Assembly (NCBI GenBank): GCA_965262915.1
Contig: OZ253564.1
Location: forward strand, 2,880,001 to 2,944,000
Length of the DNA stretch: 64,000 nucleotides
Reading direction: 5' to 3'
Source: Candidatus Spongiisociaceae bacterium
GTDB lineage: Bacteria; Actinomycetota; Acidimicrobiia; Spongiisociales; Spongiisociaceae
Shown here: positions 42,497 to 58,902 of the stretch, one piece after another
Layout of the letters: each line of letters starts with the position of its first letter
How positions within the stretch are numbered: position 1 is the first letter of the stretch
Translations under genes and position numbers: made by a program
The notes under the pieces: model-generated
Seen by the model: the letters and a program-made list of their open reading frames with translations, nothing else
The model's database searches: none
What the model was told of the DNA's origin: nothing

Positions 42497-42659
42497 AGTG
42501 GTCTGCCAGCAAGATGATTCGGTGTGCGCTACTTGCCATCGGCGTCCCTCGCTGCGTTCCGCCTCCTCGATATCGCTGCGGGTACGCCTTCGTCGGTGGG
42601 CCTTGCGAGCAACGCCGCTGCCGGCGCACGCCACACCACCATCTCACAGACAGACCACA
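42497..42659. repeat. Dispersed TIR-bounded repeat, copy 2
   Basis: AGTGGTCTG...CAGACAGACCAC with the same core as copy 1. Confidence 0.85.
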
Positions 42660-44929: not shown

Positions 44930-45465
44930 TCACGGCGGGAGATGTATCACTACGTCGCCTTCCAGATCCGTGCGGCGGATTTCCATTCCGGCTTGCTCGA
45001 GTTCGGCCAACAGCTCAGGAGAGGGGTGACCGTAGCGGTTGGGGCCCACGCTCACGACCGCCACCGAGGCGCCCGAATCGATCAGCCATCGGGAGTCGGA
45101 GGTGGCCGCACCCTGATGCGGGACCTTCAGCACCGCGACCGGGGGAGGTGGCAGTTCCCGCTGGGCGATCCGTTCGACGTCCCCCGACAGCAGTATCCGG
45201 GTCCGGCCCAGGGTGGCCACCATGACGATGGATTGGTCGTTGAGGGATGCGTACCTGCGCAGGGGCCCCAGCACCTCGAGCCCGATGGAGCCGATGAGGT
45301 AGCGGCCCGGCCGGGGCGTGGAGATGTCGGTGTGGGCGGAGGCGGTGCGGATGAAGGCGGCGAACTCGTCGCCCTGTCCGGGGAAGGGTACGTACCACAT
45401 CGCCCGGACCGGGATGGATCCCACCACGTCGGAGAGGCCGCCGTAGTGATCGTGGTGAGGGTGGG
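44930..45465 (-). pseudogene. comEC: comEC 3' half (remainder of the metallo-beta-lactamase domain)
   Basis: HPHHDHYGGL..., NDQSIV, LLSGDVE, LKVPHQGA, ISVG-like VSVGPNRYGHPS and RTDLEG. Confidence 0.92.
45452..45465. other. att core (left junction) GTGGTGAGGGTGGG
   Basis: Exact 14-bp direct repeat with 57247-57260. Confidence 0.9.
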
Positions 45466-45638
45466 CACACCACTACTCATGTTTTTATCTATACTTATCA
45501 GACCTCAATAAACACCATTGACCTGGTGTTATAGACGTATAACAGGAGGGACCGGGGATCCAGGCATTATCATTAGATATCACCGAATTGCACTACTATA
45601 GTAGTAACTGAAGTAGTATCTACCGTTAGTGGTGTGCA

Positions 45639-46805
45639 ATGAAACGGAAAGGGCAACCCCTCACAGCAGCCTTCGTACGGTCAGTGAAACGGCCAGGCCG
45701 GTACGGCGACGGTCGGGGTGGTCACGGTCTGAGCCTGTTGGTGAAGCCGATGACCAACGGCCGCGTCTCCCGCTCATGGTCGCAAAGGGTCCTCGACCCG
45801 CGAACAGGGCGACCGACCGGCATCGGGCTCGGTGCGTACCCGGTCGTAACTCTGGCGCAAGCCCGCAAGATGGCGCTTCACAACCGTCGGGAACTCGACG
45901 CCGGACGCGACCCAAGAGGCGGCGGACTCCCCACTCTCGAAGCAGCCACCGAGAAGGTGATCGCCTTACACCGGCCGGACTGGAAACCCGGCTCTCGCAC
46001 CGAACACCAATGGAGACAATGGCACCGCGACTACATCGCGCCGGCCATCGGCGACCGGCTGGTGTCGGAAGTCACCACCGCCGACGTGCTCCGAGCGTTG
46101 ACACCGATATGGTCTTCCCGGCCGGTGGTCGCCCGACGGGTCCGCGAGCGGCTCTCGCTGGTGTTCCGATGGGCCATGAGTCAGGGCTACCGGCCAGACG
46201 ACCCGGCCGGACCGGACCTGCTCTCGGTACTCCCCAAGCAGAACGGCAAGCAGCACCACCAAGCGCTCCCCCATGGCGCCGTACCGGCAGCCATCCGCAA
46301 GGTGCGGGCGTCCACGTCCACTCTCCCGGTCCGGCTCTGCATCGAGTTCGTAGCGTTGACAGCGGCCCGTCACGGCGAAGCCCGACTCGCGCAGTGGCCC
46401 GAAATCGACTTCGACACGGCCATCTGGACCGTTCCACCTTCCCGTATGAAAGCAGGCCGTGAGCACCGGGTACCCCTCTCCGGCCGGGCGCTGGAAGTGC
46501 TCGCAGAGGCCCAAGCCGTAGACGACGGGTCCGGGCTGATCTTCGCGATGAACGGGAAGGCCATCAACGCGTCCACCATCGGCGCTACCTTCCGCAGACT
46601 GGAGATAGCCACCGCCCACGGTCTCCGGTCGGCTTTCAGGTCATGGTGCGCCGATGAGGGGATCAAGAGGGAGACAGCTGAAGAGTGCCTCGCCCACCAG
46701 GTCGGCAGCGCCGTCGAGTTGGCCTACCAACGGTCCGACGTGATCGAACTGCGCCGGCCAGTCATGCAAGCCTGGGCCGAATACATCACCCACAAACTGT
46801 TATAA
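45639..46805 (+). CDS. int: P4-like tyrosine integrase
   Basis: GLSLLV...GLGAYP, ARHGE, MKAGREHRVPLS, HGLRS and LAH...AY. Confidence 0.93.
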   Translation: MKRKGQPLTAAFVRSVKRPGRYGDGRGGHGLSLLVKPMTNGRVSRSWSQRVLDPRTGRPTGIGLGAYPVVTLAQARKMALHNRRELDAGRDPRGGGLPTLEAATEKVIALHRPDWKPGSRTEHQWRQWHRDYIAPAIGDRLVSEVTTADVLRALTPIWSSRPVVARRVRERLSLVFRWAMSQGYRPDDPAGPDLLSVLPKQNGKQHHQALPHGAVPAAIRKVRASTSTLPVRLCIEFVALTAARHGEARLAQWPEIDFDTAIWTVPPSRMKAGREHRVPLSGRALEVLAEAQAVDDGSGLIFAMNGKAINASTIGATFRRLEIATAHGLRSAFRSWCADEGIKRETAEECLAHQVGSAVELAYQRSDVIELRRPVMQAWAEYITHKLL

Positions 46806-46891
46806 GCCTATAACATAGACACCCGCCTAATCCAACTGTTATAAGCCTATTATCCTTAGTGTTAGTTGACATTCATAACCAATAAGCCTAA
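46796..46891. promoter_or_regulatory. Direct repeats upstream of alpA (putative operator)
   Basis: AACTGTTATAAGCCTA twice plus a partial ATAAGCCTA in AT-rich DNA. Confidence 0.55.
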
Positions 46892-46932
46892 CGTGATATC
46901 ACCAATCGAAGTAGCGGACGAGAAGGGCAAAC

Positions 46933-47127
46933 ATGGCATCGGAACGGCTCATATTCCGAGTTGATGAGCTCGCGCAACGGCTCGGAGTCTCGACACAGAC
47001 CATCCGACGGTGGGAAAAAGCCGGAGACTTCCCCCGGGCAATCCGACTGGGCCAATCCGCCAGAAGTTCCATAGGCTGGAAAGCCGCAGACGTAACCGAC
47101 TGGATTGACAGCCGACCGGCCGCGTAG
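46933..47127 (+). CDS. alpA: AlpA-family regulator/excisionase
   Basis: ELAQRLGVSTQTIRRWEKAGDFPRAIRLG...GW...V.DWI. Confidence 0.9.
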   Translation: MASERLIFRVDELAQRLGVSTQTIRRWEKAGDFPRAIRLGQSARSSIGWKAADVTDWIDSRPAA

Positions 47128-47216
47128 CGCGTAGACTCAGAACGAAGAACCCCACCGGTGGGCGACCGGTGGGGTTCAAATCTCCAAGAAAGAAGGTGAC
47201 AGTCAAGGAGGACAGA

Positions 47217-48683
47217 ATGCACTCTACCACCACCCGGCAGTATCCGCCACCGGTCACCCGTATACACGAAACCGCCGACAGATATCTGGTGTATCGGGAA
47301 GGCATCGACCGGCCCGTCTCGATCTCCGCCGCCGACTGGGAACACGACAACAACACCAACCCCTGGGACAAGACCAAACAGGACGCCAACCTAGCCGCGC
47401 TCCACAACGACGAACCCCACCCGTATCCATCCCCCAAAATGCTCTGGTCCGACTACTCAGCCATCGCCGACTTCCAGGCCGAACAGGCAGCCGCACGGTG
47501 GCACAAGCTCGCGTGGGACCGGATCGAGGCCGAACAGCTGCCAGCGTCCAACCGATCAACCGCCGAACTGTTCGACGAACTCGCCGAAGCTCAACAACTC
47601 GGTGCCGTCGAAGTCGCCGAGGTGCTCCGGGGGTTCTTGCGGCTGCGCGGTGTACACGAAGAGGACCTCGGCGGGCCGTACTGGTGGACCGACATACCCG
47701 ACCTCGACCGGCTGCCACCACCACCCGCCCCGTTGCTGACCCGAGACGACGGGCAGACTGTTGTGCCCGCCGACAGGTCAATCAGCATCTACGCACCACC
47801 AGAACGGGGCAAGACGTGGATCGGGTTCATGGTGGCACTGGCAGCTATCAAAACGGGTGGGCGGGCCGTAGTCGTCGACCATGAGATGAACGTCCGGGAC
47901 TGCGCTAACCGGTTCCGGCTGCTCGGCGGCTACCGCTACGTTCGCAACCCCGACCAGTTTCGTTATTTGTACGGACCGGAGACCCAACCCGCCGATGTCG
48001 AAGCATCCGCCCGGTGGCTCGCAGCCCGCCCCGGATCGGTGGTTGTCATCGACTCGGTGAACCGTGCCGGCGGCTACTCCACCCACCCCACCGAGTATCT
48101 CGAATGGGCCGACAGCAACGTCAAGCCCTACCGCACCAAACAGGTCGGCGTTGTGCTACTCGACCACGAAACCAAGACCCGCCCCGCGCAAGGCTCCAAC
48201 TATCAGGGACCGATGGGCACCGGCCAGAAAGTCGCCGACGTGGACATCGTGCTCCGGGTAGACGGCACACCGTGGACCACCACCGAACCGGGCACGATCA
48301 CCCTTCACCGGATCAAGGACAGACACGGCGACCTGCCAGGCCCGCCCGCCGTCGCGTCCATCACCGGCGACTATCAAGACGGCGGATTCGCATGGCGGAT
48401 ACACCGTCCGGCCACCGCCACCATCGAACAAGCACCCGGCGACTCGTCCCGCGCCCGGCGACTCAAGCGGCTAGAGAAGGCCATCGTGTGGGTACGCAAG
48501 CAGCCCGAACCCGTGACCGCCTTCGACTTGGCGAAGGGTATCGGAGTAGGGAAGGTGACCGCACTCGACTACCTGAAAGAACTCGCCGCCGGCGGCGAAC
48601 TCACCCAACACACCAAGGGGCGAACGTTCGTGTTCTCAGCACCCGACGACCAGGGCATCTTGACCCTTCCCGAGCCCACATGA
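47217..48683 (+). CDS. Replication protein: RecA-like/AAA_25 helicase with C-terminal winged HTH
   Basis: Walker A APPERGKT, Walker B VVVIDS, LLDH and KDR. C-terminal DLAKGIGVGKVTALDYLKEL. Confidence 0.75.
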   Translation: MHSTTTRQYPPPVTRIHETADRYLVYREGIDRPVSISAADWEHDNNTNPWDKTKQDANLAALHNDEPHPYPSPKMLWSDYSAIADFQAEQAAARWHKLAWDRIEAEQLPASNRSTAELFDELAEAQQLGAVEVAEVLRGFLRLRGVHEEDLGGPYWWTDIPDLDRLPPPPAPLLTRDDGQTVVPADRSISIYAPPERGKTWIGFMVALAAIKTGGRAVVVDHEMNVRDCANRFRLLGGYRYVRNPDQFRYLYGPETQPADVEASARWLAARPGSVVVIDSVNRAGGYSTHPTEYLEWADSNVKPYRTKQVGVVLLDHETKTRPAQGSNYQGPMGTGQKVADVDIVLRVDGTPWTTTEPGTITLHRIKDRHGDLPGPPAVASITGDYQDGGFAWRIHRPATATIEQAPGDSSRARRLKRLEKAIVWVRKQPEPVTAFDLAKGIGVGKVTALDYLKELAAGGELTQHTKGRTFVFSAPDDQGILTLPEPT

Positions 48684-48688
48684 CCTAT

Positions 48689-48812
48689 CGTTCAAGTGTT
48701 CATTTGAACGTTCAAACGCCACCTGAACGATGGCTTACGTTCAATCGTTCAAGTGTTCAACCCACCCCGTAGGGGTTGAACATGCACGTTGAACACCCAT
48801 CTGACGTTCAAG
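48689..48812. repeat. Iteron-like GTTCAA/TTGAAC cluster, putative origin
   Basis: Many copies in both orientations immediately after rep. Confidence 0.65.
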
Positions 48813-48831
48813 TCAACGAGAAAGGACCACC

Positions 48832-49068
48832 ATGACCACGCAAGACGAACGAACCGCAGCACTCCTGAAACTCGGTGCTGCCATCTTCGGACGCAACAAC
48901 CTCATCGGCAGCGACTTCGACCACATCCACCTCGAAGAGACAGAAGCCGACTACGAACAAGACCGCGCCGGCGTCCTCATCCAGTTCTCCATCAGCTGGC
49001 ACGCACTCGGAAAGATCGCCACCGAACAGACCTGCGAAGCGATCACGGTCCTCCTACCAGATCACTAG
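48832..49068 (+). CDS. Hypothetical protein
   Basis: RBS GAAAGGA. Base composition similar to neighbouring genes. Confidence 0.6.
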   Translation: MTTQDERTAALLKLGAAIFGRNNLIGSDFDHIHLEETEADYEQDRAGVLIQFSISWHALGKIATEQTCEAITVLLPDH

Positions 49069-49168
49069 CCACCCGCCCCACCCCCGGTAGGGCACCGCCC
49101 GGCCCGGCCGCCCGTGCCAGCGCCGACCGGTGTAGCCTCGGAGACACACACACCTTCCCGGCGTCTGG

Positions 49169-49459
49169 TCAGCGGTCGAGGAGCTCGCGGACCAGGGTGT
49201 GCCACGCCTCAACTGCCGGCGACACCGGACGCCGAGCCCGATTCTCCGCCACCGTCTTCGAGATATGGCATGACCGGCATAGCACCTGAAGGTTGCCAAG
49301 GTCATAGGATGCGCCGCCATCTGCTAGCGCGATCACATGATCCACTTCGAGCTTGCCCGCACACCCACAGGATCGGCACCTATGCTGGTCACGTTCCAGC
49401 ACTGCCCGGCGGACGACCCGCCATCGGTTCCGGTTGATAGCCGAGCTCGGGTGTGCCAC
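49169..49459 (-). CDS. HNH endonuclease (phage packaging type)
   Basis: RWRVVRRAVLERD..RCRSC...EVDHV...NLQVLCRSCHISKT. Confidence 0.9.
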   Translation of the reverse strand: MAHPSSAINRNRWRVVRRAVLERDQHRCRSCGCAGKLEVDHVIALADGGASYDLGNLQVLCRSCHISKTVAENRARRPVSPAVEAWHTLVRELLDR

Positions 49460-49699
49460 CCCGACTTCATCCCATCCGACGGACACATTGCTCAGGCGCG
49501 GGCGTATGTTCACACCAAGAGTCCTGGGCAGTCACAACTATCACTCCGACTAAAGACAGCGTCGCAGTTGTTACAAAAGAAATCATCCATCTGCCTATGT
49601 GGTATATATGCGAACTGATCCCACTGGCAATTGGCACACTTCTTGTATGGAATACCTACCCCGCCTGTAGGAGGCGGCTAAGGGATCCGGTCCTTTATG

Positions 49700-51132
49700 G
49701 GCTCATCGGATTTCAGTGGGGAGTGACCGATGGGAGTAGGTCCCAGTTGGGTTTCCCCGCGTAGAGAAGGGCGCGGATTCGGTAGTTCGCGAAGTTGCGG
49801 AACCCGAACGCTGCTCGTTTGATCCGTTTGATGAGGTTGTTGAGGGCTTCGGTGGGTCCGTTGGTTACCTTCGAGATGTGCCAGTTGGTGATCTGGGGGG
49901 TCCAGCGGGCGATGGTACGACCCAGCTTGTTGATCTCGGGTGGGCAGGATTCGTGTTGGAGGTCGTCTGCGAGCTGGAGGGTGTATCGGAGAGCAAGGAC
50001 CGGACTCTCGATCCCGTAGATGCCTCGTACCGTCTCTTTCGCGTGCCAGGCTGTGCGCACTTCCCCGTAGGGGTCACCAGCATCGAGGAGACCACGCAGC
50101 CGTATTTGACCCCGGTCGCTGATCCTCTCATGCGCAGCGGTTAGGAGCCGCCGTATCCGATACAGCGGGTCATCCTTGCGGCCTCGATGCCCGAGGGTTT
50201 CGTTTTGGACTCTTCGTCGTACCTCGTCGAGACGCTGGTTGGCGAGGCGGATGACGTGGAACGGGTCCGCTACCTGCAGCGCGTGCGGCAGCACCCTGTC
50301 ATACGCCTTCCGATACGAACCGGACATGTCCAACACCGCCCAGCGGATAGCCTCACACCATTCGGTGGGTTGTGACCGGAACCAGGCTGCGGCGCTTTCT
50401 GCTGTTCTACCAGGGACTATGTCGATCAGCTGGTGGCCGCCAACGTCGACGACAGAGGTGCACCAGACTTTGGTACGCCAACGGCCCCGACGCCAGAACA
50501 ACGTCTCGTCCACTCCCACAGCTTCGACGGTCCCGACCCGATCGGTGTCTGCTTCCAGCAGCGCTTCGCCCCAGCGGCCAACCTCTTTGTTCACCGTATG
50601 CCAATCACAACCAAGTTCTGCGGCGACCTCGTCGACCGAACGGCCCCGCCCACCCACCTGGATGGTCACCCACCGGGCCGCTCGGGATGTCAACAACGCC
50701 CGTTGGGGACCAATCTTGGGGTCTTGTTCGATGAACGATCTGAGCGCACAGTCGGGGTTCGGACATGTCCAGCGCCGTTTCCGCCACCGCAGCCGCACAG
50801 GCCGGCCGAACGCCGGTAAATCCACCAACACAACCGTCCGATAGCCCTTCGACCACACCGACCCGCCACAGGACTCACACAACGGCCGGGGCTTGCGGGA
50901 CCGGATCACCACCTCCAACGGTGCCTCCTCGCCCGGGTCGTTGATCCCTACCAGATCAACCTCACCTAGGCCTACCAACTTCTCGCACATGCGCGTAGGA
51001 TCAGCTTCCACAGGGGTCCTCCTGCCTCGGATGTCATTACCAACACCCGATTATGGAGGACCCCTCCTCACTTCTGGTGGATTCCAACTCCCCCTGGCAG
51101 ATCCCCTACTCCCCACTCATTTCCGAAGAGCC
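49700..51132 (-). mobile_element. ISL3-family element (transposase 49713-51011), 8-bp target duplication CCTTTATG
   Basis: IRs GGCTCATCGGA / TCCGAAGAGCC. Direct repeat at 49692-49699 and 51133-51140. Motifs GVDE, LDMS, ADPFH and EALNN. Confidence 0.95.
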
Positions 51133-51667
51133 CCTTTATGTTCCCTACTTCGGTGACAAGGGTATTCATAGTTTGGGCAAGGTCGTTTGTATTTTTGGCG
51201 ATCTTCCCAATTGGTGTGTTGTTGCCTTCAGCAGAGTTTGATCCAGAAATACCCGGTCCAGCGAGATGCAGATGTGTAGAGCTCTTCACGCGCCAGAATA
51301 GAATTCGCCGATCGTAACTGACTGAGATCTTAGTCTCCCGTAGTCGACTGAGGAACTCTTTACTAGAAGCCCAGCCCATGTCAAACTCATAACGCTGGCC
51401 ATTGTCCATATCGCCGAGGTTCTTAGTTCCATATACATGGTCTCTATCGTCATAGGGTTCATACTCGGGAGAAAAGCACAGTTCGACATTCCGTGCAACT
51501 CTCTTGCCTATATTCTCGATTTCGAGAACCAAGATGTCCAAAGAAAGCAAACGTACCCGCGGTCGTGGACGACGCGTATATCTCCAAACTAGGAGGGTCC
51601 CAGTCAATCCGAGAAGGGTCGCCACGGCTTCGCTGTGTACGCTGAGCCATTCACCGATACCTGTCAT
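51068..51667 (-). CDS. Low-GC membrane-anchored cargo (moron) protein; native C-terminus replaced by ISL3
   Basis: N-terminal TM helix, LEIENIG..VARNV pattern and RBS GAGGAAGG. Removing ISL3 gives ...NIKDRIP*. Confidence 0.65.
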   Translation of the reverse strand: MTGIGEWLSVHSEAVATLLGLTGTLLVWRYTRRPRPRVRLLSLDILVLEIENIGKRVARNVELCFSPEYEPYDDRDHVYGTKNLGDMDNGQRYEFDMGWASSKEFLSRLRETKISVSYDRRILFWRVKSSTHLHLAGPGISGSNSAEGNNTPIGKIAKNTNDLAQTMNTLVTEVGNIKGLFGNEWGVGDLPGGVGIHQK

Positions 51668-51697
51668 CTGTAACCTTCCTCATAGTTTGTAATCGGT

Positions 51698-53218
51698 CTA
51701 GACAATCGCCGACCGAAGCCGCCAGTTCCGGCTCCGCCCGGCGTGCCAATGACGGTAACCGGTCGCGACAGCCAGTATCGCCGCCGCTGCCGCGTCGTCA
51801 CGCGCCCGAACACGTCGGCCACCCTCCGACCCCTTCGCCAGCTTCGCGTTACCCGCCGGGTCAACCATCACTCGCGCTTCGGACATGGCCGCCGTGAGTA
51901 GCAGAGAATCCGCGGGCCGGACATGGCCACCCAACACGGCCGCCCGGAACTGGCGCACGTCCTCGCCGCCGTCCTTGTACCCCTGACCCCTCACTACCAG
52001 TTGAGCGGTCGGGAAGCGTAACGCGTCGAGATGCTGCCGCAGCTCCGCCGCCCGCCACCGGTCACACACCACCGCCGCCGGTTTGCCCCAGCGGATCAGA
52101 GCTTCCGACAACAGCCGCCGAACGTCGGAAACATGACCACCGGCGATCACCAACTCGCCCCGCTCCGCCATCTTCGAGTAGAGCGAACCCACACCGTCGG
52201 CCAACCCACGGCGGCGAAGGTCGGGCTGTGCGGGGAACACCGCCACCGCGTCCAGCCACCCGGACCGGTGATACGCCGCTGCCGCTGACATAGCCGCCGA
52301 CGTACCAAGATCGACGCCCAGCACGTAGCTGCCCCGGACCGGTTCGGGTTCCGGCAACCCGGCTGCCCGCTTCCACGCGGCGGCGTCCAGTAGCACGGCC
52401 CGGTCAATGTCCGCCACGCCGAGATTCAGCCGGAGCGCCTTGAACGAGGCGAGCGCGTCCGGGTCGTTGCGGGCGTCCACAATCTCCGCCTGAATCCGGG
52501 CCTTCAAGCTCGGCAGGTGATCCACCGACGGGTTCGCCCGCCGAATGGTTCGCATCCAAAACGGCGGATCATCCGGACGGGCTGCGTGAACCTGGGCGTA
52601 GGCAGCCGACTTGAGCAGACGGGCGAACCAGTGCGTCTGGTCCGCCGGTCGGGTACCCAACGCGATCAAGCGGGAACCCGGCACCTTCCCTAGGCCGGTG
52701 CGAATCGCTTGGAGCATCCGATCCGCCCGCCCCGGTTCCCACTGGCTGGGTTCGTCGAGAAGCGCCAACGCGGGCCGTAGCCCGTGAGCCCGCCCCGGAT
52801 CGGAACCAATACACCGAATCCGGCAACCCGACGCCCGGAACTCAAGCGTCGCTCGATTCGCGCTGTCTTGCTTCCGCCACGCCGACCGGTCGCCCAAGTC
52901 GTAGCGGTTACCCAAGAACGCGAGCACATCCTCGAAGATGATCCGTGACTGGTCGAAGCTCGCCGCCACACACACAACCTCACGCCGCCGACCATGCAAC
53001 GGCCCCGACGAGTCCACCATCGCCGCCGCTATCCCCGCCACAAGCGCCGACTTGCCATTACCCCGGCCAACCGTCAGAGCCGAATCGCCCGGCCCCCGGA
53101 ACGCCCCTCGAATGAACCGCCGCTCCCACGGCAACACCACGAACGGCTGCCCGTCGTGGTCGCCGCCCGCCAACGTCAGTCCGGCGAGGTAGGCGATGAT
53201 GTCAGTTGCAACAGCCAC
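51698..53218 (-). CDS. terL: Terminase large subunit
   Basis: PWERRFI, GRGNGKS, LLDE, ANPS, GVDLG, CDRW and DDAAAA. Confidence 0.9.
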   Translation of the reverse strand: MAVATDIIAYLAGLTLAGGDHDGQPFVVLPWERRFIRGAFRGPGDSALTVGRGNGKSALVAGIAAAMVDSSGPLHGRRREVVCVAASFDQSRIIFEDVLAFLGNRYDLGDRSAWRKQDSANRATLEFRASGCRIRCIGSDPGRAHGLRPALALLDEPSQWEPGRADRMLQAIRTGLGKVPGSRLIALGTRPADQTHWFARLLKSAAYAQVHAARPDDPPFWMRTIRRANPSVDHLPSLKARIQAEIVDARNDPDALASFKALRLNLGVADIDRAVLLDAAAWKRAAGLPEPEPVRGSYVLGVDLGTSAAMSAAAAYHRSGWLDAVAVFPAQPDLRRRGLADGVGSLYSKMAERGELVIAGGHVSDVRRLLSEALIRWGKPAAVVCDRWRAAELRQHLDALRFPTAQLVVRGQGYKDGGEDVRQFRAAVLGGHVRPADSLLLTAAMSEARVMVDPAGNAKLAKGSEGGRRVRARDDAAAAAILAVATGYRHWHAGRSRNWRLRSAIV

Positions 53219-53290
53219 GACTTGGACCCTACCCACTCTGTTAACCAACATTCAACATCTTTCACATATGTAAGGCGTTAGACTGTTGCT

Positions 53291-54577
53291 ATGACTACCA
53301 GACAGAAGATCGAACTGAGGCTCTCAAAGGTCCGCTCCCGGTTGAACGAACTTGCCGGAGTCGAGGAACTCACCGACGAACACCGGGCCGAACTCGACAA
53401 CCTCGAAGGTGAGTTCGGAGACCTCGAACGCCGGCATCGGGCGGCGATCCTGTCCGAAGCCCACGAGGAACGCGCCGCGGTGGGGATGTTCCCCGACGGT
53501 GACGACCAGGACGGCGCCGAGGTCCGGCAGTTGCTGGGCCGGGTCACCCTCTCCGACTATCTCGGTCCGGCGGCTGCCGGTGCCGGCAGCCGGGGCGCGG
53601 CGGCCGAACTCAACGCTGCCTTGGAAGTACCCGAGGCGGGTCCGTCCGGCGGGGTGGCGGTTCCGTGGCGGGTGCTGCTTCCCGATGGTGGGATCGAGGC
53701 CCGTGCGTTCACGACCACCGCCAACAACGACGGTACGGAGATGCAACGCCCGATCCTGCAGCGGCTGTTCGGGCCGGGGATCATGAACACGCTCGGGGTT
53801 CGGATGGACTCGGTTCCGGTCGGTCGGGCGGAGTGGCCGCTCATCACGTCCGGCGTGGCACCCGCCCAGGCGAAGGAACCCGACGCTGCCGCGGCTGCGG
53901 TGGTTGCCGGATTCAGCTTCGCCAATCTCAAGCCGAAGCGGTTGACCGGCGTGTACGAGTACACCCATGAGATGGCCGCCAGCGTCGCGGACCTAGAGGC
54001 GGCGCTGCGGCGTGACCTCGCCGATGCTGTGAGGTCGAACATGGAACAGCAGATCGTCAACGGGACCGCTCCGACTAACCAGAACCCGCAGAACGTGGAG
54101 GGGTTCATAACCAAGCTCACCGGCTCGGACCTGTCCGCATCGCAGGCAACCGCGGCCGATTACGGCAAGCTGCACGCTCTTGCGGTTGACGGTGTCCATG
54201 CCAGCACCGAGACGGAAGTTATGTCGGTGATCGGTGACGAAACGTATCAGCACGCCGCCGGCGTGTACATCACCGGTTCCGGCGAGTCCGGTTCGGAACT
54301 GTTAAAGCGCCGGTCCGGTGGTTGTAGGGCTTCGACGTACATTCCCGCTATCGCGTCCAAGAAACAGTCGGCGATTCTGCACGCGGCCGGGTCGAACGGT
54401 GGGGGGATCATGCGGGGCGACTCGGTGGCGGCTGTATGGCCGACGCTCGAAGTGATCCGGGATATCTACACGAAGGCGTCCCAGGGTGTCGTGCTGACGT
54501 GGCTGACGTTGTGGGACGCGGTGGTTGCGTTCCGTTCGTCGGCTTACAAGCAGATCGACATACAGATACGGGCATAG
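53291..54577 (+). CDS. Major capsid protein (HK97-like, coiled-coil N-terminus)
   Basis: N-terminal helical scaffold, GGVAVP, LKPKRL...EM and IVNG....N.EG. Located in the head-gene cluster. Confidence 0.8.
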   Translation: MTTRQKIELRLSKVRSRLNELAGVEELTDEHRAELDNLEGEFGDLERRHRAAILSEAHEERAAVGMFPDGDDQDGAEVRQLLGRVTLSDYLGPAAAGAGSRGAAAELNAALEVPEAGPSGGVAVPWRVLLPDGGIEARAFTTTANNDGTEMQRPILQRLFGPGIMNTLGVRMDSVPVGRAEWPLITSGVAPAQAKEPDAAAAAVVAGFSFANLKPKRLTGVYEYTHEMAASVADLEAALRRDLADAVRSNMEQQIVNGTAPTNQNPQNVEGFITKLTGSDLSASQATAADYGKLHALAVDGVHASTETEVMSVIGDETYQHAAGVYITGSGESGSELLKRRSGGCRASTYIPAIASKKQSAILHAAGSNGGGIMRGDSVAAVWPTLEVIRDIYTKASQGVVLTWLTLWDAVVAFRSSAYKQIDIQIRA

Positions 54578-54581
54578 GCTC

Positions 54582-55481
54582 ATGGTCGAACGGACCCGAC
54601 CGTTAGAGGTCCGGCTCGCGGGCCGGACCCTTCGCGGCGTCGCGTTGCGATATGGGGAACAGGCACGAGACCGGGCCGAGATGTTCGAGCCGGGGGCGTT
54701 CCAACCCATAGGGTCGGTGTCTCTGAACCTGCAACATGACCGGTTCCGGGAAGTAGCAAGCACCGACGGGGGATCGCTGCGGATCACCGACACGCCCACC
54801 GAGCTACGGATCGAGGCCGACCTGCGGGAGGGTTCCGCCGAACTGTCGTTGGTGAGACGCCGCGCTCTGCGTGGTCTGTCCGTCGAGTTTCGGGCACTGG
54901 CAGATAGGCGGAACCCCGCCGGTCTCCGGGTGGTACAGCGGGCGGAGCTTCCCGCTATCGGCTTGGTCGATTCCGGTTCCTACCGGACCGAGGTTGAGCT
55001 ACGCGCCGCGTTCGGGCAAGCGTGGCTAACCGCCGATATCCGGTTCGGGAAGCGGATGCAATGCCAATGCCAAGGCCCGACTTGTACCGATGTTGAGTTC
55101 GAGCCTGGCGCGTTCGAGGACCTGATCGAACGCCGCGACGTGCTCGCCGTTGGTGGCGGCGGTTTCGCCAACGTCCTGGGGAGCACGCGGCGGGGAACGC
55201 TGCTTGTCGACCAGACCGACAAGGGTCTGCGGGTCGGTCTCACCAACGCGGGAACGGACACGGCCCGCCGCATCGTCGAAGCCGCCGCCGTGGCCGATAT
55301 CTTTGTGAGGCCGCTGATCGACCTCGAAGCGTCCGAGTACGAAGACGACGGCACCACCAGACGTTTCACACGGGCGGTCACACGGGCGCTGTTGGTGAAA
55401 CCCACCCCGAACGCCAAGGGTCACCGTCCGGCCCGCATACGGGGCGTCCAGACCCGCAGGAGGCGACGCCCGTGGCTGTAA
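54582..55481 (+). CDS. HK97-family prohead protease with a second degenerate protease-like domain
   Basis: LRGVALRY, EMFEPGAF, LQHD, GLSVEF and IGLVD..Y. A second FEPGAF...LGST..GTL unit follows. Confidence 0.8.
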   Translation: MVERTRPLEVRLAGRTLRGVALRYGEQARDRAEMFEPGAFQPIGSVSLNLQHDRFREVASTDGGSLRITDTPTELRIEADLREGSAELSLVRRRALRGLSVEFRALADRRNPAGLRVVQRAELPAIGLVDSGSYRTEVELRAAFGQAWLTADIRFGKRMQCQCQGPTCTDVEFEPGAFEDLIERRDVLAVGGGGFANVLGSTRRGTLLVDQTDKGLRVGLTNAGTDTARRIVEAAAVADIFVRPLIDLEASEYEDDGTTRRFTRAVTRALLVKPTPNAKGHRPARIRGVQTRRRRRPWL

Positions 55482-55789
55482 CCATCGACGCGGACGCCCT
55501 CGCCGAAGCCATCGGCGGTGAGAACTCACCTACCGTCGTTGCCCGCGTACTGGAAACCGCCACAACCATCGTCGAGGACTACGCACCCCACGCGCCCGAC
55601 GCGATCCACAACGAAGCCTCCGTCAGATTCGCCGGGTACCTGTACGGGTCTGACTTCGGCGGAATCCGCGACGAAACAATCGGGCCGGTGACCGTCACGT
55701 ATCCGCTCAACCATGCGGCCATGTTCCGCAACTCGGGGGCCGCCGCGTTGCTCACCCGGTACAAGCGACGGCGGGCAGGGGCGGTCTGA
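55472..55789 (+). CDS. Head-tail connector-like protein
   Basis: A...VEDYAP.AP....EA..R...YLY and C-terminal AAALLTRYKRRR. Between protease and portal. Confidence 0.65.
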   Translation: MAVTIDADALAEAIGGENSPTVVARVLETATTIVEDYAPHAPDAIHNEASVRFAGYLYGSDFGGIRDETIGPVTVTYPLNHAAMFRNSGAAALLTRYKRRRAGAV

Positions 55790-56850
55790 TGCGCTGGCCT
55801 TGGGGGCGTGAGAAACGGGAAAGCCAGCCGTTCACCGACGCCGTAGTCGGCACGATCTACGCGCAGGCCGCCGGAACCGTCGCGGCTGACCCGTCCGGGC
55901 TCGCCGCGCTCGAAGTAGCGGCCGGACTGTACGCCCGCAGCTTCGCCGCCGCCACGGTCGAACCAGCCGAACTCCAGCCGGTCATAGGCCCATCCGTGCG
56001 GGCTCTGATCGCCCGGAACCTGATACGCCGCGGCGAAAGCGTTCACCTGATCGAAGTCAGCGGCGGCCAGGTCGAACTCATCCCCGTCGGGTCGTGGGAC
56101 GTGCGCGGACCCTGGACCGAGAGGGACTGGTGGTACCGGGTTGACACCTTCGGACCGTCGGGCAACGCAACCCACTACACACCCGCCGGCGCCGTCGTGC
56201 ACGCCCGCTACGCCGTGGAGCCGGCCCGCCCCTGGTTCGGAGTCGCCCCCCTCGATTGGGCCCGCTCAACGGGCACCCTCGCCGCCTACCTTGAGACACG
56301 GTTGGGCCAAGAAGCCGGCGGAACCGTCGCCCACGTCCTGCCCATCCCCCAAGACGGCGGCGACGGCAGCACCGACGACCCGCTCGCCGACCTCAAGGCT
56401 GACATCCGCAACGCGAAGGGTGGGACGGTGCTCACCGAAACCACCGCGGGCGGATGGGGAGAAGGGAAGATGTCCGCCCCTCAAGCCGACTGGCAGCCAC
56501 GGCGGATCGGTGCGAACCCGCCCGCAGTGTTGCCGACGTTGCGGGCTGACGTGTTCGGCGCGGTACTCAACGCGTGCGGAGTGCCCGTGTCCTTGGCGAC
56601 TGACGCCGATGGAACTTCGCAGCGGGAAAGTTTCCGCCGGTTCCTGACCACAGGCTTGGAACCGCTCGGGGAACTGGTAGCCGCCGAACTCGCCGCCAAG
56701 TTGGACACCCCCGGCGTCCGGTTCGACTTCACCGGAACCTACGCCCACGATCTCGCCGGACGTGCTCAAGCGTTCGGGAAGCTCGTCGCCGGCGGCATGG
56801 GCACCGACCGGGCGCTACAGATATCCGGGCTGCTGGTGGCCGATGGGTAA
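55789..56850 (+). CDS. Phage portal protein
   Basis: LIRRGES, VVHARY...WFGVAPL and ACGVP. Coupled to the connector gene (TGATG). Confidence 0.8.
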   Translation: MRWPWGREKRESQPFTDAVVGTIYAQAAGTVAADPSGLAALEVAAGLYARSFAAATVEPAELQPVIGPSVRALIARNLIRRGESVHLIEVSGGQVELIPVGSWDVRGPWTERDWWYRVDTFGPSGNATHYTPAGAVVHARYAVEPARPWFGVAPLDWARSTGTLAAYLETRLGQEAGGTVAHVLPIPQDGGDGSTDDPLADLKADIRNAKGGTVLTETTAGGWGEGKMSAPQADWQPRRIGANPPAVLPTLRADVFGAVLNACGVPVSLATDADGTSQRESFRRFLTTGLEPLGELVAAELAAKLDTPGVRFDFTGTYAHDLAGRAQAFGKLVAGGMGTDRALQISGLLVADG

Positions 56851-57214
56851 GCCGGTCTGTTCGCTCGACGGCTGTACCGAACCGTCGAAGGCTCGCGGCT
56901 TCTGTAAGAGCCACTGGGCGCGGGTCCGGTTCCGGGAGCGTCGGCTGGCCGAAGGGCGGAAACCGCTCAAAGAGAACCCAAGACCCGAAGAGTTGCTGGT
57001 CCGCTACTGGACACCCGCCGAAGACGCCCTCATCCTCGCTGAGATAGCCAAGGGCTTGGGGAAGGCCGACTGGCTGCCCGTGGCCCTTCAACTTGGACGC
57101 ACCAGGCAGGCGTGTAGGACCCGTGCGACCTTCTTGCGGAAACGGGATCGTCTCGCGGACGGATCTCCAGCCGAACACGTTGGCATAGCGGAAGTGGTAA
57201 CCGAAACTTCCTAA
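56843..57214 (+). CDS. Zn-finger plus Myb/SANT-like DNA-binding protein
   Basis: CSLDGC...ARGFCKSH, then WTPAEDALIL...DWLPVALQLGRTRQACRTR. Confidence 0.6.
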   Translation: MGKPVCSLDGCTEPSKARGFCKSHWARVRFRERRLAEGRKPLKENPRPEELLVRYWTPAEDALILAEIAKGLGKADWLPVALQLGRTRQACRTRATFLRKRDRLADGSPAEHVGIAEVVTETS

Positions 57215-57246
57215 AACACTCTGACCTGGGGATATAGGCGGTATCG

Positions 57247-57260
57247 GTGGTGAGGGTGGG
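57247..57260. other. att core (right junction) GTGGTGAGGGTGGG
   Basis: Exact repeat of 45452-45465. Confidence 0.9.
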
Positions 57261-58737
57261 ACACCACCAGCAGGTCTATGGCCCGTATGCCGAATCGGGA
57301 CAGCCCGTCGCGAACCTTCAACCCGCTGCTCCCTCCGTCGATCAGTACCGTTTCGCCGCCTTCGCCGAGCAGCAGCAGAGCGTCTCCCTGCCCGACATCC
57401 AGCGCCACGAAGGCGGGTCGGACCGAGGTGAGAGCGAACGTGTGAGGGGCGGCGGAGACCGTGAGCACGCTCACCACCAGCACGCACGCCACGACCGCTG
57501 CCGGACGGATCCGACCCCACATCGCCCCCGACCCGAGCACCAACAGGACCACGAAGCCCCGCCAGTCGATCTGGGGTAGGTCGGCGGTGATCGTTGCGAT
57601 GCTGAGCACCACCTCTGCCGCCATGGCTGCCGCGGCTACGACCACGTCGATCCCGGCCAGGGCGCCCGCCCCGGCCAATCCGGTGGAGGCGACCACGAAC
57701 GGAGCCGCGGCCACGTTGGCGACGGGCGACCACAACGGGATGGTCCCCACGGCAACCAGCAAGATGGGCGCCACCCCCAGTTGCGCCCCACACGACGCGC
57801 CCAGCGCGGTTCCCACCCATCTCGGCCGCAGCGCTGCGAACCAACCGGCGCCGATCACCACACCGGCGGTGGCGGCCACCGAGAGCTGGAATCCCAGGCT
57901 GAAGGCAAGCTCGGGAGAGGCGAGGAGCAGGAGGCCTACCCCGCCGGCGATGACCACCCAGATGTCGGGGCGTAGCCCGAAAGGCCGGGCCACCAGAACC
58001 AGTCCGGCCATCGTCGCGGCCCGAACCACCGAGGGATCGGGTCCGATCAGCAACACGAAGAAGGCCAGTCCGCCCAGGCCGATCACCGCCCGGCGCCGGG
58101 AACTCCATCCGAGGGGACCGGCCACCAGGAACAGGGCGCTCAGGAAGAGAGCCACGTTGCTTCCCGACACCGCCACGAAGTGGGACAACCCGGCGCGACG
58201 CATCCGCTCGACGTCCACCTCCTCCAGATGGGAGGTGTCGCCCAGCAGGAAACCGGCGAGGAGGGCCCGGCCGCGACCTGCGTCCGGCCCCAACCGTTCG
58301 ATGATCCCCGCACGGATAGCGACGATCGTCTGACCCAGCCATCCACCGGATGCTCCGGCGGTGCGGGACTGCACCACCTCTCCCCGCCAGGTCACCCTAC
58401 GACCGGGACCGCCCCCCTGGGCTGCATCCGGGATCGGCTCCATCTCGGTCCTGATCCACCAACGGCTGGTCCTGGGCCAATGGGCAACATCGCCGCGGAG
58501 CCAACCGACCGGACCGTCCCAGGGTCGGCGCCGACCCTCCTCCCCCACGGCAACGACCCGGGCACGCACCAGTCCGTCGTCCCGCATCCGGATGCCGTCC
58601 GACAGCGCCTCCACCACCAACATCACCTCGCCGACGGGGAGTTCGAGCCCGAGCGTGCGCTGGTCGCGGGCGGCGAGCATCAGACCGGCCACCATCCCTA
58701 CGGCAGCCAGCCCCATCACCAGGCCCGCCGTCCACTG

Positions 58738-58902
58738 AGTGGTCTGCCTGTCGGACGATTCGGCGTGTCCCGCTTGCCATCGACGCCCCTCGCTGCGTTC
58801 CGCCTCCTCGACGTACCGCTGCTGGTACGCCTTCGTCGGCGGGCCGTGCGAGGAACGCCGCTGCCGGCGCATGACACACCGCCACTTCGCAGACAGACCA
58901 CT
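58738..58902. repeat. Dispersed TIR-bounded repeat, copy 3, in frame inside comEC
   Basis: AGTGGTCTG...CAGACCACT, 165 bp (55 codons) with no stop in the comEC frame. Confidence 0.85.

Follow-up and report, generated by a model that had tools for sequence, protein, structure and literature searches.

A ten-kilobase tail-less element inserted in comEC, probably a member of a cross-phylum family of capsid-forming satellites

Phage-inducible chromosomal islands that form capsids (cf-PICIs), whose prototype is EcCIEDL933 (10.1101/2022.09.08.507074; 10.1101/2025.02.11.637232; SatelliteFinder, PMC10085698), are credited with three origins, in Gammaproteobacteria and Firmicutes (10.1101/2022.09.08.507074); their heads take the tails of other phages, with an adaptor and a connector setting the specificity, and are released tail-less and non-infective until a tail has been gained (10.1101/2025.02.11.637232). 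Among satellites of actinobacterial hosts, MulchRoom and MiniFlayer of Streptomyces carry their own head and packaging genes, a small terminase (TerS), a scaffolding protein, one head-to-tail adapter and 1-kb terminal repeats, with neither a replicase nor a helper-type tail, in 14.8–17.4 kb (PMC10690885). The EPIPs of Mycolicibacterium are helper-dependent elements of about 11 kb with TerS, tape measure, adaptor, stopper, scaffolding protein and serine integrase; the large terminase (TerL), portal and HNH endonuclease do not figure on their conserved list, as far as the source is available (PMC12822802). Finally, the HK97-type cos phages (HK97, 16-3) have genomes of 40–60 kb with TerS, tail and lysis modules. 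Here, we analyse an element that interrupts the competence gene comEC at positions 45452–57260 of the window, i.e., of a stretch of 64,000 nucleotides from a Candidatus Spongiisociaceae bacterium, whose genome encodes four WhiB genes and can therefore be assigned to Actinomycetota.

In our reading, to which we give a probability of about 0.68, this element belongs to a lineage of capsid-forming satellites that is independent and streamlined and works in the manner of a cf-PICI. Its head-and-packaging set (capsid, protease, portal, gp6-type adaptor, TerL and HNH) is intact and under purifying selection across a cross-phylum family of elements of about 10 kb; particles and a helper are predicted, and two components that define cf-PICIs, TerS and head closure, were not found in the element. 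Every gene named in the original prediction, which had been made from the sequence letters, is present and open in the window: int, alpA, rep and ori, then terL, a cargo gene and HNH on the minus strand, and capsid, protease, connector and portal on the plus strand. The genes that make up the head-and-packaging set are as follows.

51698–53218, minus strand: TerL, HK97-type (phrog_9, E 8e-57), with Walker A and B motifs and nuclease acidic residues intact
49169–49513, minus strand: HNH endonuclease, in the HK97 gp74-type position beside TerL; true start probably near 49453
53291–54577, plus strand: major capsid protein of HK97 fold, its N-terminus forming a helical delta domain (TIGR01554 above cut-off)
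54582–55481, plus strand: prohead protease (S78), His and Ser aligned with those of HK97 gp4, plus a second protease-like half
55472–55789, plus strand: predicted gp6-type head-tail adaptor (structure model, pLDDT 86)
55789–56850, plus strand: portal (PF04860 above cut-off)

Residues K57, D156, E157, D304, D387 and D476 of TerL are conserved in 41–42 of 42 family rows, and its length of about 507 aa is that of the HK97 protein, which leaves no room for a fused TerS. The model of the adaptor has HK97 gp6 as its top VIA match (Z 8.7, rmsd 2.8, 81 residues), a middling Z score with ranks 1–15 almost all occupied by phage neck entries, and thus resembles the gp6-type head-tail protein expected of a cf-PICI; Foldseek returned no match at E 0.001 or better for either the capsid or the adaptor model, and the adaptor profile matched none of the PDB sequences. 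A second head-tail protein (head closure) was not found in the element, where the adaptor stop overlaps the portal start and no other candidate open reading frame (ORF) exists. Profile scans of the element gave no match to holin, tail, tape-measure or lysis families, the last three in agreement with the original prediction, which had recognised none of them, nor a TerS. As for the protease, two of its stretches match Peptidase_S78, and the second half, which some members (e.g., L048) do not have, bears a CxC..C motif conserved in many members.

The element is bounded as follows.

45452–45465, no strand: left att core of 14 bp, within the comEC codons for the HxHxDH motif
57247–57260, no strand: right att core, the same 14 bp
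57211–58872, minus strand: 5' part of comEC (Competence domain), cut by the element inside the metallo-beta-lactamase domain, with comEA upstream
44930–45451, minus strand: 3' remainder of comEC (beta-lactamase-like domain), then holA

Rejoining the flanks at the core yields a single open comEC frame running through the HxHxDH motif, which indicates that the element splits comEC, and in the 29 genomes of the host family that were searched, comEC matches reaching the junction mostly end at query base 266, i.e., at position 45465, the last base of the core. Integration into comEC is thus site-specific. Between the identical cores lie 11,795 bp, or 10,354 bp without an ISL3 insertion sequence (IS), and the intact, closely packed head genes stand between both att sites, size and arrangement both being as predicted. 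Mobile elements inserted in comEC (a genomic island of S. pneumoniae) and in comM (many elements) are documented (PMC12378983); unlike them, two head-forming satellites of one family here occupy comEC and comM in a single genome. The second of these, also complete (L001:5679–16213, about 2989680–3000210 on the host contig G000:C1), measures 10,524 bp, splits comM about 46 kb beyond the window and has a co-directional terL and a D5-type primase-helicase. It shares with the window element a 59-bp right-end stretch at 90% identity and a protease at 79%, while the capsids are only 28% identical, so that modules recombine. Around comEC, an interspersed repeat of about 130–150 bp with dozens of genome copies is seen at window positions of about 42500–42650 and 58740–58900; it flanks several host genes and overlaps the comEC start that was listed first.

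Relatives were collected from the host's own genome, from related genomes and from contig collections, and mapped with purpose-built profiles on our own gene calls, which may miss genes; the 46 loci examined are those with both TerL and capsid. The exact order terL-HNH-capsid-protease-adaptor-portal occurs in 29 of them, most others being cut, circularly permuted or IS-broken versions. The hosts of the family belong to at least four phyla, with members in Actinomycetota, Alphaproteobacteria (including the isolate Pseudorhodobacter turbinis), Nitrospinota and Gemmatimonadota (Longimicrobiales records). The lineage had been predicted to be actinobacterial; the capsid profile matched only 2 of 401 genomes of the host class (portal matches: 6 of 29 genomes of the host family), and with relatives in other phyla this label has to be dropped. 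Scored candidates amount to at least 850 capsid homologues and at least 2,468 TerL homologues, a count that may include ordinary phage terminases, and the clusters (at 50% identity) that match the adaptor profile with E up to 1e-10 number 1,294, so that the family may be large; single-protein scans of viral contigs returned 0 and 1 loci.

The att-to-att length is 9,444–10,658 bp in 15 elements, a range bounded also by the search window itself. These 15 were kept from 20 loci with an upstream integrase (no repeat in L034, L045 and L062; ambiguous in L022 and L033); the second-longest repeat was taken in L041 and L042 because it lies in a tRNA end, and seven loci with a downstream integrase were left out. 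Integration targets include several tRNA genes, comM, comEC and a peptidase gene, and such varied targets, together with hosts in at least four phyla, imply that the element moves. Two circular contigs, L027 and L030 (9,031 and 9,459 bp, with terminal repeats of 103 and 99 bp), have the head set, a plasmid-type replicase (PF03090) and no integrase match, and are possible satellite-plasmids. Contigs of 7.3–11.1 kb account for 52 of the 120 best TerL homologues and contigs of 11.1–14.9 kb for 6, a peak suggestive of unit-length molecules, which could partly reflect assembly breaks at att sites. All 27 gene pairs of at least 60% identity have a dN/dS of 0.13–0.37, indicative of purifying selection on the family genes.

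In a quick tree of TerL computed without L041 (added in a FastTree run), the window protein and 40 family members form a clade of 41 rows (SH-aLRT 100) apart from HK97 and from Sakai Sp7, which we take to be the equivalent of EcCIEDL933 and whose gene set matches; Sp7 is the one cf-PICI in this sampling, the two Firmicutes cf-PICI clades being absent from it. The original prediction had also fixed beforehand what would speak for a deletion remnant of a tailed prophage, namely full tailed prophages as closest relatives. HK97-type head genes, and the neck- or tail-type genes scattered over a few relatives, would suit such an origin, but the nearest cultured-phage TerL (HK97 group) is 26% identical, a search of 50,697 phage records gave no match for the capsid, and the clade holds no tailed relative. 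Neither relatives with full tail and lysis modules nor eroding genes were found; instead, both att sites are intact, the size is tight, the same layout recurs across phyla, selection is purifying and circular forms exist. This origin is already contradicted and hardly credible, whereas the tail-less layout and size shared by the relatives argue, as had been proposed, for a capsid-forming satellite.

Tail tube, sheath, fibre, holin and endolysin families were not found among the accessory and downstream genes of the family (150, 68, 137 and 36 proteins in overlapping sets, an HK97 tail control being detected); 25 of 42 loci extended over at least 5 kb downstream, and the scan covered part of the upstream flanks. 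Neck-type genes are sporadic, with head closure in 7 of the 46 loci (profile or BLAST cluster), Neck1/gp10 in four (profile) and a neck terminator in two; a gp138-type domain and a weak 539-aa tape-measure match occur in one locus each. All stand at varying positions and never as a module, and isolated genes of this kind are as compatible with an origin from a tailed phage as with capture. Since most members are without a head-closure gene, one might imagine autonomous tail-less particles, i.e., gp6-closed heads freed by lysis that deliver their DNA without phage tails, for instance via the host uptake machinery. The heads that cf-PICIs release are indeed tail-less, three probes found no helper marker in the genome, and L031 and L057 carry proteins of about 1,070–1,115 aa at the adaptor position. 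However, those cf-PICI heads are described as non-infective before they gain a tail (10.1101/2025.02.11.637232), the retained gp6 ring and the Neck1 and terminator genes seen here and there suggest that tails are joined, and both copies in this genome inactivate competence genes instead of preserving them, which makes such particles very improbable. The two large proteins (L031:4615–7962, 1,115 aa, fused to the adaptor; L057:2536–5745, 1,069 aa, adjoining it) have no Pfam or PHROG match and are possible attachment proteins.

Set beside the described systems, the window element resembles cf-PICIs in its int-alpA-rep left arm, its own capsid, protease, portal, adaptor, HNH and TerL with HK97-type packaging, its lack of tail, holin and lysis genes, and its small, att-bounded genome, both lengths given above lying within the range of about 10–18 kb. 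It differs from them in that TerS was not found and that head closure is absent from it and from most family members. Moreover, the family order contrasts with that of Sp7 (capsid-protease-portal-adaptors-HNH-terS-terL), its size of about 10 kb with the 15.4 kb of the cf-PICI, its TerL clade is separate from Sp7, its hosts lie outside the described Gammaproteobacteria and Firmicutes clades, and some members are circular and integrase-free. With MulchRoom and MiniFlayer the window element shares an actinobacterial host, its own head and packaging genes, a single adaptor and the absence of a helper-type tail, but it has a rep and an ori and no TerS was found, so that their description sets them apart; with the EPIPs it shares size and host phylum, but its integrase is a tyrosine integrase and no tape-measure or TerS match was obtained. 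As for the cos phages, the nearest TerL, the gp6 fold, the HK97 capsid and protease, and the HNH partner are common to both. We found no description of the family in the open-access literature, supplements excluded; the actinobacterial or incomplete cf-PICI lists of SatelliteFinder may include members.

The left arm comprises the features below.

45639–46805, plus strand: tyrosine integrase, P4/IntA type with arm-binding domain
46933–47127, plus strand: AlpA-type regulator/excisionase (PF05930, E 9e-9)
47217–48683, plus strand: rep, with an AAA_25 helicase-like domain, an uncharacterised N-terminus and a weak C-terminal helix-turn-helix (HTH)-like match
48690–48811, no strand: putative ori with nine GTTCAA iterons in both orientations
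45527–45544, with a second copy at 46798–46815 and a partial third at 46837–46854, no strand: palindrome TGTTATA-N4-TATAACA, candidate operator or arm site

Integrase and AlpA-type regulator are both present, as in cf-PICIs. Nine of the window's 32 GTTCAA hexamers are packed into the 122 bp of the putative ori. The rep gene is a near-orphan with three homologues only, and its N-terminus has neither a usable match in the Atlas search nor similarity to the primase-helicase of L050. Domain and profile searches found no primase domain in rep, next to its helicase-like domain and the iteron ori; the predicted lack of a primase thus holds for the window copy and not for the family, elsewhere in which D5-type or Toprim primase-helicases, O-like initiators and plasmid-type replicases occur. 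The palindrome has two matches in the window versus none in 100 shuffles, these being the only two perfect copies in the 5-Mb genome, and its copies bracket the integrase gene. About ten more integrases of the host genome are 48–54% identical to that of the element, most without head genes, e.g., at 238863, 348392, 504600, 766568, 1239159, 1411452, 2905196 (about 25200 in the window) and 4481565 on G000:C1; the last is accompanied by a terL fragment, and portal fragments are seen at 4377953 and 620356.

Regarding packaging, 133 ORFs were searched with TerS profiles, i.e., five from the window and 128 of the 135 same-strand ORFs of 60–260 aa from 16 other bounded elements (seven already annotated ones being excluded). 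None matched at E 0.001, while four of four control TerS (HK97, Sp7, S. aureus, phiBT1) were detected, and the genes immediately before terL are mutually unrelated across loci. Three features of the window are relevant here.

48832–49068, plus strand: ORF of 78 aa with one homologue (L024) and no TerS match
56843–57214, plus strand: 123-aa protein with a Cys/His zinc finger and a Myb-like HTH, accessory (eight loci), candidate regulator without TerS match
49089–49160, plus strand: conserved GG(C/G)ACC plus G-rich tract, candidate cos or packaging site, at the left edge of the inversion described below

The original prediction had proposed both ORFs as TerS candidates, and neither is supported by the profile searches: the first has no profile or Atlas match and occurs in two loci only, and the second is the accessory zinc-finger protein. 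The GG(C/G)ACC motif is found in 14 of 31 loci, compared with 57 hits in 1550 random windows and none in 31 windows taken inside the capsid gene, and in the 14 loci it mostly lies 20–80 nt upstream of terL; the viral contig L028 starts about 12 bases before such a motif, which may represent the packaging site. In HK97, TerL and procapsid are enough for in vitro packaging, HNH gp74 promotes cos cleavage and TerS recognises the site (PMC9410871). The missing TerS could also be a sign of dependence, as in P4 or cos Staphylococcus aureus pathogenicity islands (SaPIs), the element using a helper's TerS or an unrecognised one and not a simplified motor: in the studied cos systems, TerS recognises cos and recruits TerL (PMC9410871), P4 and some SaPIs use the terminase of their helper (10.1101/2022.09.08.507074), and the motif upstream of terL could mimic a helper cos. 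Nevertheless, no cultured-phage TerL comes closer to that of the family than about 26% identity, the mutually non-homologous pre-terL genes offer no conserved candidate and the hosts belong to several phyla; we regard this dependence as possible but rather unlikely.

The divergence of terL from the capsid gene, announced as spanning some 70 bp, was confirmed in its geometry, the two starts being 72 nt apart, but not as a defining architecture: terL lies on the capsid strand in 44 of the 46 loci and is inverted in two, and it was rejected as a lineage marker. Two further features belong to this region.

51133–51667, minus strand: cargo gene of 49% GC, encoding about 182 aa when the IS is discounted, with a hydrophobic N-terminus
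53219–53290, no strand: divergent spacer of 72 nt between the terL GTG (53218) and the capsid ATG (53291)

The gene arrangement indicates that the divergent terL is an inversion of the terL-cargo-HNH block that begins, on the left, just past the conserved motif and ends, on the right, within the AT-rich spacer preceding the capsid gene. In L041, the sole other inverted locus, the same block is inverted and the motif is likewise kept on the top strand; L041 falls in distant TerL and capsid clades (FastTree), which makes two independent inversions likely. For the window copy, an assembly artefact was rejected, contigs of sequencing runs X1 and X6 bridging both inversion edges unbroken and those of X13 the left edge, as was a phase-variable inversion, with no strand-switch joint among the joints listed and no unitig break at the edges; no inverted repeat was seen by eye at the edges. 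TANNNT hexamers precede the terL GTG by 7 nt and the capsid ATG by 6 nt and might be leaderless-type promoters, a pattern familiar from Actinomycetota, yet a promoter consensus scan did not flag them. Since every gene, the motif and the promoter-like hexamers are intact, the inversion is probably tolerated. The nearest relatives are 80–90% identical (e.g., P0002, P0125). No Pfam or PADLOC match was obtained for the cargo gene, PADLOC matching 0 of 6 proteins.

The block has also received an insertion sequence.

49700–51132, minus strand: ISL3 copy with an 8-bp target duplication

Its transposase has 11 genome copies at 100% identity, this one included, and runs X1, X6 and X13, from three studies, skip the IS (joint 49691->51133, 8-bp overlap) at a depth about that of the surrounding element, which implies a recent insertion; run X15 was too thinly covered for use. 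In X6, unitigs break exactly at 45465 and 57247, with a flank depth of 64–73 exceeding the element depth of 44–61. An empty comEC allele present as a minority would give this pattern, which a co-occurring strain may explain as well as excision does; the joint restoring comEC is not among the X6 rows listed. Such data bear on whether the family is a working satellite of which the window copy is immobilised, the inversion having uncoupled terL-HNH from normal transcription and ISL3 having exceeded the head capacity, so that the copy persists only as a disruption of comEC, an explanation compatible with our reading at the family level. The rarity of the inversion (2/46), the 11.8 kb with the IS versus 9.4–10.7 kb in the family and the absence of amplification or attP in the four runs would agree with immobilisation. 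Conversely, the IS-free inverted form is the one present in all three studies, with no frameshift listed in the head genes, the TerL catalytic residues are intact, promoter-like hexamers precede both divergent starts, the same inversion exists in a distant clade (L041) and the X6 breaks fall exactly at both cores; we therefore hold immobilisation to be doubtful. At position 53251, X6 and X13 have T>C, which changes the ATG of an alternative terL start farther upstream to GTG, likewise a start codon.

Several observations weigh against a satellite of the cf-PICI kind. Neither particle, helper, attP circle nor amplification was seen in the genome and run contigs: element depth is equal to or below flank depth in X1, X6 and X13, no attP branch appears among the listed assembly pieces of the runs, and three probes of the own genome (TerS PF05119, tape measure PF10145 and a third phrog_9 TerL) detected no resident helper. 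With its IS, the window copy is longer than all 15 measured family elements, and it has only the gp6-type protein where the studied cf-PICIs have adaptor and connector. The capsid model is weak (pLDDT 60; best VIA match the phage XM1 capsid, Z 9.4) and uninformative on the T number. On the packaging side, AlpA gave weak, HTH-only TerS matches (phrog_57, E 4e-4), a very divergent TerS could escape profiles, and the strict motif pattern is found in only 14 of 31 loci, looser variants being visible in others. Lastly, some members (L042, L046, L048, L060, L065, L066) carry isolated neck- or tail-type genes.

If the element is nonetheless such a satellite, AlpA and the integrase would quite probably excise it upon induction, restoring comEC, and the variable rep/ori module would, with equal likelihood, amplify it. 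Very probably, it would then build a small head of the HK97 fold with room for about 10 kb. TerL and HNH would fairly probably cut and package the DNA at the motif upstream of terL; no TerS of the element itself would take part, and the two would act with a borrowed TerS or else, as a tentative proposal, alone. The head closure, the neck and the tail would, with comparable probability, be those of an unrelated tailed phage and dock on the gp6 ring, the one or two own neck genes of some members setting the tail choice. At its most far-reaching, a speculative and rather unlikely version has these elements as undescribed cross-phylum satellites that have dropped TerS, in which TerL and HNH alone recognise a short site, gp6-capped heads accept the necks and tails of many phages, and captured neck genes switch the tail choice. 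With such a TerS-free, tail-promiscuous organisation, movement between distant phyla would be accounted for, a single head module would serve both integrative and plasmid forms, and excision would also turn the natural competence of the host back on (comEC, comM).

If confirmed, the satellite reading would mean that head-forming satellites have arisen independently once more, in phyla that the published cf-PICI clades do not include, and would offer a natural system for testing whether genome selection by a cos-type motor can do without TerS, which is held to be the DNA-recognition component in the studied cos and pac systems. Such elements would tend to escape pipelines in which TerS and both head-tail genes are required, and the two copies disrupting comEC and comM link satellites to the suppression of natural transformation. 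Two small replicons with a TerL outside the family, L087 (Roseomonas mucosa plasmid pTT14-8, 16.9 kb), which has HNH, portal, protease and capsid without annotated tail, and L081 (Ralstonia phage YO088_5, 12.9 kb), are other candidate head-only elements. Within the family, four members that cluster together have a small P-loop (AAA_33-like) gene separating capsid from protease (L043:3940–4377; L044:11018–11506; L048:5562–5999).

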